Shown here: piece by piece, positions 7,669 to 8,743 of the stretch
How the letters are laid out: the number at the start of each line of letters is the position of its first letter
How positions within the stretch are numbered: the first letter of the stretch is position 1
UHGV virus genome: UHGV-1374307
Length of the DNA stretch: 8,788 bases
Reading direction: 5' to 3' (one strand)
Source of the DNA: a virus
Made by a program: the position numbers and the translations under genes
Notes under the pieces: model-generated
Told to the model about the DNA's origin: nothing
The model's database searches: none
Seen by the model: the letters and a program-made list of their open reading frames with translations, nothing else

Positions 7669-7953
7669 ATGTTAACAATACAACAACTGGATGAGTTTAA
7701 AAAAGATATAGAAAAAGAGTTAAGAATCGTTAAATGGGCGCCAACATATACTCAGATTGCTGATATGCATCGCCGAATCATGGCTGTAATAAATGATAAT
7801 GGCACCCCAAATATTAGAAAGATCGTAAATGATGTTTATGGGAAACCAATAACTGTTTTTGTTACGGATGGTCTGGATATGTCAACCGAGAGTACCCTTC
7901 TTGCTAAACTGAGAGCTCAAGCACAAGAGAGACAACAAGGAGATAAAAAATAA
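7669..7953 (+). CDS. Hypothetical small soluble protein (94 aa from ATG 7669; 98 aa from ATG 7657)
   Basis: AT-rich ORF. ATG 7669 has a better RBS (GAGGT, 5-nt spacer) than ATG 7657. Stop TAA 7951-7953 is 1 nt from the start of the next gene (operon). Confidence 0.5.
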   Translation: MLTIQQLDEFKKDIEKELRIVKWAPTYTQIADMHRRIMAVINDNGTPNIRKIVNDVYGKPITVFVTDGLDMSTESTLLAKLRAQAQERQQGDKK

Positions 7954-7954
7954 T

Positions 7955-8743
7955 ATGGATATTGAAGGAGTCATGGAAAAACAACGCTGTGAAATAGAAA
8001 GACACAGATTTGAATATCGTGCAAAACTTGATGAATGTTTAAAAGGATTGTGCGACTTTAACGATGTTCACATGATTGCCTGTGACTTCTTCAATTATTT
8101 AGACACCTGTGCTTCGCAGAATAAAACATCATCAAAAACAGTAGATAGTGATTGGAATCAATGGCTTGCTGAAACCTGTCTTAATGTTCTAGATACCATT
8201 CATGAACATTATTCAACATATAAATTATTATCACCGAATGAGTTTCGCTTACCAAGCCGAACAGCCTTTGCATCAATGCAAAGATTGGTGAAAGAGCATT
8301 ACCATGACAATGTTCTGCTAGAAATCAAAAGTAAATTTGTAGAAAGCAGCCTTCCAATATTTGGTTTTGACACAAGGAAAAAAATTAGCGTGGCTAAAGT
8401 CATACTTTCTGTATCAATGCTTGTCATTTCAGCATTGCTAATCACTATTGCAATGGTATTTCCCGGTGAATATAACATTCCATTCATATTGGGGATTGGG
8501 TTCTTCTTCGTGTTGTTTATAGCATTACTTTTTATTCCACACCCGACAAGCCATCAACACGACACATTAAGAACATTGCTAAGTATCGCTGCCGCAGGAG
8601 TAATAACAACCTTCCCCGGATTTATTGAGTTCACATATACAAATAAAGCTGGATATTCCATAACTGCTTTTGGTTCAATAGCAATTTTCCTTGTTGTATA
8701 CCTGATTAACCCTGCAAAGCTTAGAGAAAAGATCGAAAAATAA
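7955..8743 (+). CDS. Hypothetical membrane protein (262 aa): Cys-containing cytoplasmic N-domain (~150 aa) plus 3-4 C-terminal TM helices
   Basis: SD AGGAGA upstream of ATG 7955. N-domain has a Cys cluster (CEIERH...CLKGLCDF...HMIACDF...DTC); C-terminal half has hydrophobic helices VAKVILSVSMLVISALLITIAMVF, IPFILGIGFFFVLFIALLFIP, ITAFGSIAIFLVVYLI. AT-rich; followed by the dif-like site and junction terminator. Confidence 0.6.
   Translation: MDIEGVMEKQRCEIERHRFEYRAKLDECLKGLCDFNDVHMIACDFFNYLDTCASQNKTSSKTVDSDWNQWLAETCLNVLDTIHEHYSTYKLLSPNEFRLPSRTAFASMQRLVKEHYHDNVLLEIKSKFVESSLPIFGFDTRKKISVAKVILSVSMLVISALLITIAMVFPGEYNIPFILGIGFFFVLFIALLFIPHPTSHQHDTLRTLLSIAAAGVITTFPGFIEFTYTNKAGYSITAFGSIAIFLVVYLINPAKLREKIEK

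Follow-up and report, generated by a model that had tools for sequence, protein, structure and literature searches.

The 8,788 nucleotide stretch analysed here, UHGV virus genome UHGV-1374307 (hereafter the window), is one circularly permuted unit of a filamentous phage in which both the plus and the minus strand are coding according to the list of open reading frames (ORFs). A complete inovirus core comprising pII, pV, pVIII, pIII, pVI, pI/Zot and pIV was identified on the minus strand through PHROG matches and RefSeq annotation. The subject of this analysis is a pair of plus strand genes beside the phage attachment site (attP), encoding a small protein of 94 amino acids (7669-7953, 285 nt) and a membrane protein of 262 amino acids (7955-8743). 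The TAA stop codon of the small gene at 7951-7953 and the ATG of the large gene at 7955 are separated by a single nucleotide, in accordance with the tight linkage described in an earlier reading of the letters made without database searches (the sequence-only reading). An alternative ATG for the small gene is present upstream at 7657; a start at 7669 is likely since it is preceded by GAGG at 7661-7664 and RefSeq annotates a gene of 285 nt encoding 94 amino acids. Comparison with a copy of 81% identity from an unrelated inovirus (L010) yielded ratios of non-synonymous to synonymous substitution (dN/dS) of 0.10 (small gene) and 0.12 (large gene), and both are real coding sequences under purifying selection. 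The order of small gene then large gene was retained in homologues at 24-50% identity.

The G+C content of the pair is 35.9%, lower than the 41.1% exhibited by the phage core. The sequence-only reading had described the difference as large, which was overstated, with pVI (37.7%), pI (38.7%) and a 60 amino acid gene upstream (36.6%) being nearly as low. The pair was also said to lie opposite all other phage genes. This is not the case, as the 60 amino acid gene (6826-7008) and a gene of 140 amino acids (7097-7519), both belonging to the phage backbone, are encoded on the same strand.

Residues 1-140 of the large protein (7955..8374, plus strand) represent an acidic, cytoplasmic helical-bundle domain, while residues 141-262 (8375..8743, plus strand) contain four hydrophobic helices located by hydropathy at 149-167, 175-193, 208-226 and 233-251, with which the helices predicted by AlphaFold2 agree. 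The helical bundle was predicted over residues 1-135 with a predicted local distance difference test (pLDDT) score of about 80-94. The proposal of a soluble N-terminal domain followed by C-terminal membrane helices was therefore borne out; the emphasis placed on its cysteines was not, since the protein possesses six, of which only C75 is conserved in the family. The N-terminal domain bears the motifs WNQWLAETC, PSxTAFAxMQR and LPxxGF, and the final ~85 residues form a conserved transmembrane (TM) module of the pattern PTxxQ..R..PGFIE..AGGAxAxF..Y..NPA. Motifs of the large protein were conserved down to approximately 20% identity among 79 diverse relatives. Of the top 157 profile hits, 103 possessed the N-terminal domain together with the module and 52 possessed it by itself or attached to one or the other end of proteins with other domains, the fusion partners including TPR, ankyrin, NUDIX and DUF3298 domains, among others. 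As the module is portable and polar, proline and glycine residues are conserved within its hydrophobic helices, these observations suggest that it is a functional membrane device and not a simple anchor.

The small protein is basic (isoelectric point 9.0) and, as had been stated previously, hydrophilic, with a grand average of hydropathy (GRAVY) of -0.54. It is predicted to form four helices and two short strands (pLDDT 75), and its conserved core is a C-terminal motif, YGKPIxVxVxxGLDTSKAxxLLAK. A hidden Markov model (HMM) of the small family detected between one and four homologous ORFs directly preceding the membrane gene, and on the same strand, in all loci examined with the exception of one (L019), confirming that the two genes constitute a unit. 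Elsewhere, the small and membrane genes either overlap or are spaced by up to ~30-110 nt. Where several copies are present they often alternate between a short form (~50-66 amino acids, consisting of the C-terminal motif only) and a full-length form. Arrays of up to four copies (L004 6934-7986; L021 5099-5973; L005 7132-8041; L022 5025-5945) look as if a unit of one short and one full-length gene had been duplicated. The form present in the window, with one small and one large gene, is the minimal version. Alignment by hhalign revealed no relationship between the families of the small and the large protein. In strain 98227 (NZ_CP173466.1; L027 1650-2516), the small gene of one tandem copy is interrupted by IS1 and cut to 46 amino acids; the membrane gene downstream of it is intact, and the other tandem copy, which is that of the window, has both genes intact. 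NCBI records label homologues of 91-94 amino acids (P0214, P0215, P0217, P0220, P0216) as 'S-(hydroxymethyl)glutathione dehydrogenase' or 'DUF2612 domain-containing protein', labels that were rejected as propagated misannotations.

A word-indexed search of 5.8 billion proteins recovered only 11 close clusters. When 1.84 billion representatives of 50% identity clusters were searched in full with a profile, 2,331 hits were obtained at E <= 0.001, of which 1,100 were at E <= 1e-10. Among 5,426 complete E. coli genomes, the type of pair found in the window was present in two, a 230 amino acid type in 22 and the type found in a P2-like phage in one, a distribution that is rare and patchy. The 90% cluster containing the window protein includes members from E. 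coli, Salmonella, Klebsiella and Enterobacter.

Relatives beyond the inoviruses were found in several kinds of mobile element. In the P2-like phage, a homologous pair, whose large protein matches that of the window at E 5e-19, is flanked by the tail-fibre H/assembly gene G on one side and the sheath gene FI on the other, and is encoded on the opposite strand to the tail genes. This position is the Z/fun locus, reported to be a second locus of P2 enriched in defence genes (Vassallo et al. 2022, PMC9519451). In a P4-like satellite, the cassette follows the Ash gene and the alpha primase gene. An island of Citrobacter associated with a transfer-messenger RNA (tmRNA) integrase carries it directly after retron I-B (RT_I-B, E 8e-116; ATPase-Toprim_I-B, E 3e-153), with RelA_SpoT and NA-iREase2 genes following, and in an island of Marinomonas it adjoins an AbiJ-like gene as well as a ParE toxin-antitoxin pair. 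On a metagenomic contig, the cassette lies ~5 kb from Lamassu LmuA/LmuB; in Microbulbifer, it lies ~2 kb from a CBASS cyclase and, in another prophage of this genus, beside an integrase. In Paraburkholderia, it was found near a DNA methylase gene and a DUF4062 gene. Further relatives occupy chromosomal islands of Aeromonas, and islets between insertion sequence elements or beside an RHS/TTc toxin gene. Known defence systems were present within 10 kb in four of nine chromosomal contexts, where a few percent would be expected by chance according to our own estimate, which was not computed. Residence beside known systems or hotspots, the operational mark of defence genes, was thus observed in a small and non-random sample of loci. 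P2 Z/fun, the P4-like satellite and the islands bearing retron I-B, Lamassu, CBASS and AbiJ-like genes are the habitats to be expected if, as the sequence-only reading supposed, the pair is defence or toxin cargo.

Comparison of the window with sister prophages demonstrated that the pair occupies a variable position. The pII-regulator region of the backbone was present over at least 80% of its length in 48 complete E. coli genomes, and this pair in only two of them. Sister backbones exhibited 91-97% identity to the window over 6601-7519 and 98-99% identity again to the right of the cargo, with unrelated pairs of genes in between. In one of these (L011), identity was 97.5% up to 7519, the stop codon of the 140 amino acid gene, and 98.7% from 8743, and the intervening segment held unrelated genes of 91 and 159 amino acids (8945-9699 in L011). 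In another (L012), the breaks were at 7519 and 8755 and enclosed genes of 117 and 110 amino acids (8924-9621 in L012). In a further sister prophage (L007), breaks at 7077 and 8740 enclosed a version of the pair of 36% identity with a 46 amino acid paralogue ahead of it. The unrelated inovirus L010, originating from a metagenome, shares only 7528-8846 with the window, at 81% identity and with a coordinate that wraps past the window end; the shared block consists of a hairpin element that forms the left end of the variable segment (7520-7594), both genes and attP, while pIII, pV and the repressor differ. In total, the pair was present in three different inovirus backbones. The block 7520-8742, delimited by sharp breakpoints at 7519 and 8743 and replaced by unrelated pairs in sister prophages, is therefore a mobile accessory cassette within an attP-adjacent cargo-swap locus, and the earlier designation of the pair as cargo is upheld.

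The alternative cargo pairs of the sister prophages had no solid identity in PADLOC or Pfam; the one weak exception was the zinc-ribbon-like 91 amino acid protein of L011, which matched PADLOC PDC-S64 at E 4e-7. The L011 and L012 pairs may represent further candidate systems. Strain K-15KW01 (NZ_CP016358.1; L012, record 8192-9171) has cargo of the 117 plus 110 amino acid type and of the 230 amino acid type close together at its dif region. Virion DNA of CTXphi made across heterologous tandem prophages is hybrid. Heterologous tandem arrays therefore offer a plausible route, by extension from CTXphi, for swapping of the attP-proximal segment, and the array of K-15KW01 could generate hybrid phages in this manner.

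The large protein was assigned to phrog_5814 (E 4.1e-50) and the small protein to phrog_6502 (E 1.4e-17), both of which are PHROG families of unknown function. Searches of Pfam-A and NCBIfam using both proteins, their P2 and Citrobacter homologues and a stand-alone TM module returned only sub-threshold noise (e.g. DUF2612, MATCAP and EXS), and precomputed Pfam domains were found in none of 71 diverse relatives. The window pair had no match in PADLOC-DB v2.0.0 at E <= 1. The large P2 and Citrobacter homologues and the small P2 homologue had none at E <= 0.1, nor was any obtained with the stand-alone TM module; the only match of the small Citrobacter homologue, to Csx15 (E 0.024), was at chance level. 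A profile search of PDB sequences returned nothing below E 0.36, neither protein was matched in BFVD, and literature searches found no paper naming either protein. Both families thus proved as unrecognisable as they had appeared from the letters, and the profile-HMM and structure-based searches that had been proposed as a check revealed no homology to housekeeping or phage morphogenesis proteins. Neither protein is represented in Pfam, NCBIfam or PADLOC, and the pair represents a new, unannotated family of mobile, hotspot-borne cassettes with a putative membrane effector.

Taken together, these data favour the interpretation of the cassette as a new defence or abortive-infection system in which a membrane effector is controlled by a small partner, to which a probability of roughly 0.55 is given. 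The pair would act as a two-component system against phages, working by abortive infection or exclusion. The 262 amino acid protein would be the inner-membrane effector, with a C-terminal TM module that, once activated, damages or gates the membrane, and the N-terminal domain and the co-translated 94 amino acid partner would silence this module and/or sense the invader. The module is read as an effector because it is both conserved and promiscuously fused, as are the effector modules of conflict systems. A broader proposal, put forward more tentatively, is that the cassette belongs to an unnamed, widespread immune family with a new portable TM effector and with specificity conferred by one to four small paralogues, and that the attP side of dif-integrating inoviruses of Enterobacteriaceae is a defence hotspot whose cargo is swapped in one block together with the hairpin and attP. 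The sequence-only reading had named superinfection exclusion, abortive infection and toxin/immunity as possible roles, and as such it stands as a well-supported candidate interpretation. Any of exclusion, defence and toxin/immunity may apply; exclusion restricted to filamentous phages is the least probable of the roles, since the majority of relatives are found outside the inoviruses.

A number of observations weigh against a defence function. The anti-phage role is deduced from genomic context, and the association with defence loci was drawn from approximately 20 loci chosen by availability. Toxin-antitoxin modules occupy the same genomic habitats. No sequence or fold similarity to known defence proteins was detected in PADLOC, PDB or BFVD, the PADLOC release being that of 2023, so that the sequence check covers systems named until then, and neither a catalytic nor a known sensor motif was seen in the N-terminal domain. 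The clade of the window has four hydrophobic helices where all other relatives have three, and by simple topology rules the four-helix form would flip the conserved helices; this, together with the occurrence of the module at either end of fusion proteins, renders the topology of the conserved module ambiguous. Finally, a promoter and terminator scan revealed nothing convincing directly upstream of 7669, with promoter-like sites fewer than in shuffled sequences.

The alternative that survives best is a toxin-antitoxin or addiction module, composed of a membrane toxin and a labile small antitoxin, which would stabilise the element that carries it, including against XerCD-mediated excision from dif, and for which any anti-phage effect would be secondary. 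Such a module is considered unlikely, albeit a serious contender. A short gene closely linked to a larger one that follows it is the arrangement of type II systems, and the small-then-large order with 1 nt spacing or overlap is maintained in most loci; neither a recognisable antitoxin DNA-binding domain or other known fold nor a known toxin family was found in the pair. The restriction of the pair to mobile elements and islets, one of them beside the ParE toxin-antitoxin pair, is also consistent with addiction, as is the disrupted small gene of strain 98227, for which the intact small gene of the other copy could act in trans. The possession of two to four diversified small paralogues would, however, be unusual for antitoxins, and the pair also occurs at a moron site of a tailed phage, P2 Z/fun, where a role in addiction is not obvious. 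The toxin-antitoxin and defence interpretations are not mutually exclusive and both can hold.

Other cargo contributing to host fitness and unrelated to phages is improbable; examples would be a factor for stress or virulence, or immunity to a contact-dependent toxin or a membrane-targeting bacteriocin. Immunity proteins to pore-forming colicins are inner-membrane proteins with three to four TM helices, which the large protein resembles in this respect, and one relative is located beside the RHS/TTc toxin gene. A modest effect on fitness in vivo is described for the filamentous phages YpfPhi and CUS-1 (PMC4266046), which would also accord with cargo of this type. Against this, no toxin gene consistently adjoins the pair and its recognisable neighbours are anti-phage systems; moreover, immunity proteins do not usually require a conserved cytoplasmic domain and small soluble partners.

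A role specific to inoviruses, either in superinfection exclusion of related inoviruses or in modulating the phage's own extrusion or membrane stress, appears more doubtful still. The location of the pair in an inovirus, its orientation in common with a putative regulator and its presence in three inovirus backbones would suit such a role, and inovirus-encoded exclusion proteins are known, one example mentioned in the literature being PfsE of Pf (PMC8764522). However, most relatives reside in the P2-like phage, the P4-like satellite and the islands of Marinomonas, Microbulbifer, Aeromonas and Paraburkholderia, and the pair is missing from sister prophages that share the backbone. That the genes are chance ORFs or decaying remnants devoid of function, as an AT-rich region and the lack of a database family of known function might imply, is effectively refuted by the dN/dS ratios of 0.10-0.12, motifs shared by 79 relatives, 2,331 profile hits and conserved synteny.

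Several known systems resemble the proposed defence cassette in organisation. RexAB of lambda is a two-gene abortive infection system of a prophage, with a soluble component and a polytopic inner-membrane component, and is thought to depolarise the membrane. The likeness of the pair to RexAB is one of architecture and lifestyle, both having a soluble and a membrane component on the repressor side of a prophage. In contrast to RexAB, the membrane protein of the pair is large with its own 140 amino acid cytoplasmic domain, and the soluble partner is small and may be represented by two to four paralogues; the pair has no match in PADLOC or Pfam, libraries in which the presence of Rex models is unconfirmed. 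TM effectors of signalling defence systems include Cap14/Cap15 of CBASS, PycTM of Pycsar and the 2TM effectors of retrons. Systems consisting of a hydrolase with a TM protein and an RT-nitrilase with a TM protein were described by Rousset (PMC9122126). The feature common to these and to the cassette is a conserved, portable TM module, the presumed device for killing or arrest, that is fused to or paired with varied sensing parts, whereas the cassette has no cyclase, reverse transcriptase or other enzyme and no PADLOC match. JukAB (jumbo phage killer) was also counted among the closest known systems. The cargo of P2 Z/fun, comprising fun and the three PD systems of Vassallo et al. (2022), occupies the same locus as the P2-like homologue, and the window pair is without a match to any model of PADLOC, which presumably includes the PD systems.

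Among filamentous phages, ctxAB of CTXphi occupies a comparable locus and differs in encoding a secreted toxin and not a membrane protein with a small partner. YpfPhi and CUS-1 differ from one another in two ORFs of the attL-adjacent segment (YPO2271/YPO2272 in YpfPhi; orf1/orf1a in CUS-1), which are unrelated and without predicted function (PMC4266046). These phages resemble the window in their core genes, in integration at dif by way of a folded dif-like attP and in the occurrence of tandem copies, as well as in a non-essential ORF pair by the attachment site that varies between near-identical phages. The pairs of YpfPhi and CUS-1 are set beside that of the window by published description only, and the window pair occurs far outside the inoviruses. 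Judged at the level of sequence, membership of the pair in the families of RexAB, the TM effectors, the P2 Z/fun cargo or the YpfPhi/CUS-1 pairs is unsupported.

If the cassette does function in defence, the bacterial immune repertoire would be enlarged by a family numbering in the thousands and by a membrane effector module of a new kind. Filamentous prophages, which are usually discussed in relation to toxins and virulence, would then possess a locus for the exchange of defence cargo akin to those of P2 and P4, and a hypothesis would be available for the variable ORF pairs of YpfPhi in Yersinia pestis and CUS-1 in E. coli K1. The variable number of small paralogues would also provide a tractable model for the diversification of sensing or regulatory components while the effector stays constant. 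If the pair is instead a toxin-antitoxin module, it would represent a new family of membrane toxins that stabilises dif-integrated phages. Two features of the cassette are less ordinary: its small partners form an expandable array, and the block is transferred together with the phage attP.

The carrier of the cassette is a dif-integrating, XerCD-dependent inovirus of the kind exemplified by YpfPhi, CUS-1 and CTXphi. Its kinship to YpfPhi and CUS-1 was taken from the published gene map (PMC4266046) and not from sequence identity, the genomes of these two phages being outside the phage collection searched. In E. coli UR21/11-869 (L001), the prophage is present in tandem adjoining hipA; the junction between the tandem copies corresponds exactly to the window end joined to the window start, and the host junction beside hipA falls at the second arm of attP. 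The gene hipA marks the neighbourhood of dif in E. coli. When the window ends are joined, attP (8751..8788 + 1..56) consists of a GC stem flanked by two dif-like sites in inverted orientation. The first arm (8751-8777, plus strand) has the sequence GATGCGCACAA TGACG TTATGCTAAAG, with an apparent central region of 5 nt, and the second arm (29-56, minus strand) has a XerC-side half, GGTGCGCATAA, identical to that of E. coli dif. The 5' half of the stem (8779-8788, plus strand) pairs with the 3' half at 13-22, which is followed by a run of T residues (TTTT, 23-26). As single-stranded DNA, the junction was computed to fold into a forked hairpin with a free energy (dG) of -27.6 kcal/mol and a z of -5.75. 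By sequence and fold, attP is of the XerCD-dependent style of CTXphi/YpfPhi. The GC stem and T-run also look like an intrinsic terminator for the plus strand operon, and the statement that the pair ends at an attP/terminator agrees with this dual resemblance.

The two backbone genes upstream of the cassette, the 60 amino acid putative regulator gene (plus strand, matching phrog_2503) and the 140 amino acid membrane protein gene (plus strand, matching phrog_4174), retain 91-97% identity in sister prophages bearing other cargo. They may form a single lysogeny-side transcription unit with the cassette, which would be expressed from the prophage in lysogeny. The sole plus strand promoter-like site detected upstream of the pair by promoter scan was at 6765-6792. 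The 60 amino acid gene is divergent from pII, in the position held by rstR in CTXphi, and its product has an N-terminus that appears ribbon-helix-helix-like by eye; no match to this protein was found in Pfam. The 140 amino acid gene has a G+C content of 48.5%, and of 47.5% at third codon positions, which is unusually high for this phage. Since it is absent from two relatives (L007 and L008), it may itself be accessory.

The hairpin element at the left end of the variable block (7520..7586), of ~65-75 nt, has 92% identity to part of the 'major intergenic region' of If1 and ~96% identity to Alteromonas phage phiAFP1, and its orientation relative to the viral strand is that found in If1. A search using 7520-8788 as the query matched 975 places in 761 genomes, mostly over the hairpin stretch 7520-7594 only, and the element is widespread, without annotation, in E. 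coli chromosomes and plasmids. In the unrelated inovirus L010 it accompanies the pair, and in L021 it lies upstream of a divergent one. Its fold is weak (z about -1.7), and a scan of the whole window against Rfam identified no RNA family. The element is probably a single-strand DNA signal of the viral strand, such as a priming site or origin. Across attP from the cassette, two minus strand ORFs at 97-330 and 448-756 encode a zinc-ribbon-like protein of 77 amino acids with a CxxC...CxxC arrangement (phrog_5435) and a protein of 102 amino acids (phrog_4115), respectively. Both are conserved and without an assigned function, and their position makes them the probable counterparts of YPO2280a/YPO2281 of YpfPhi.

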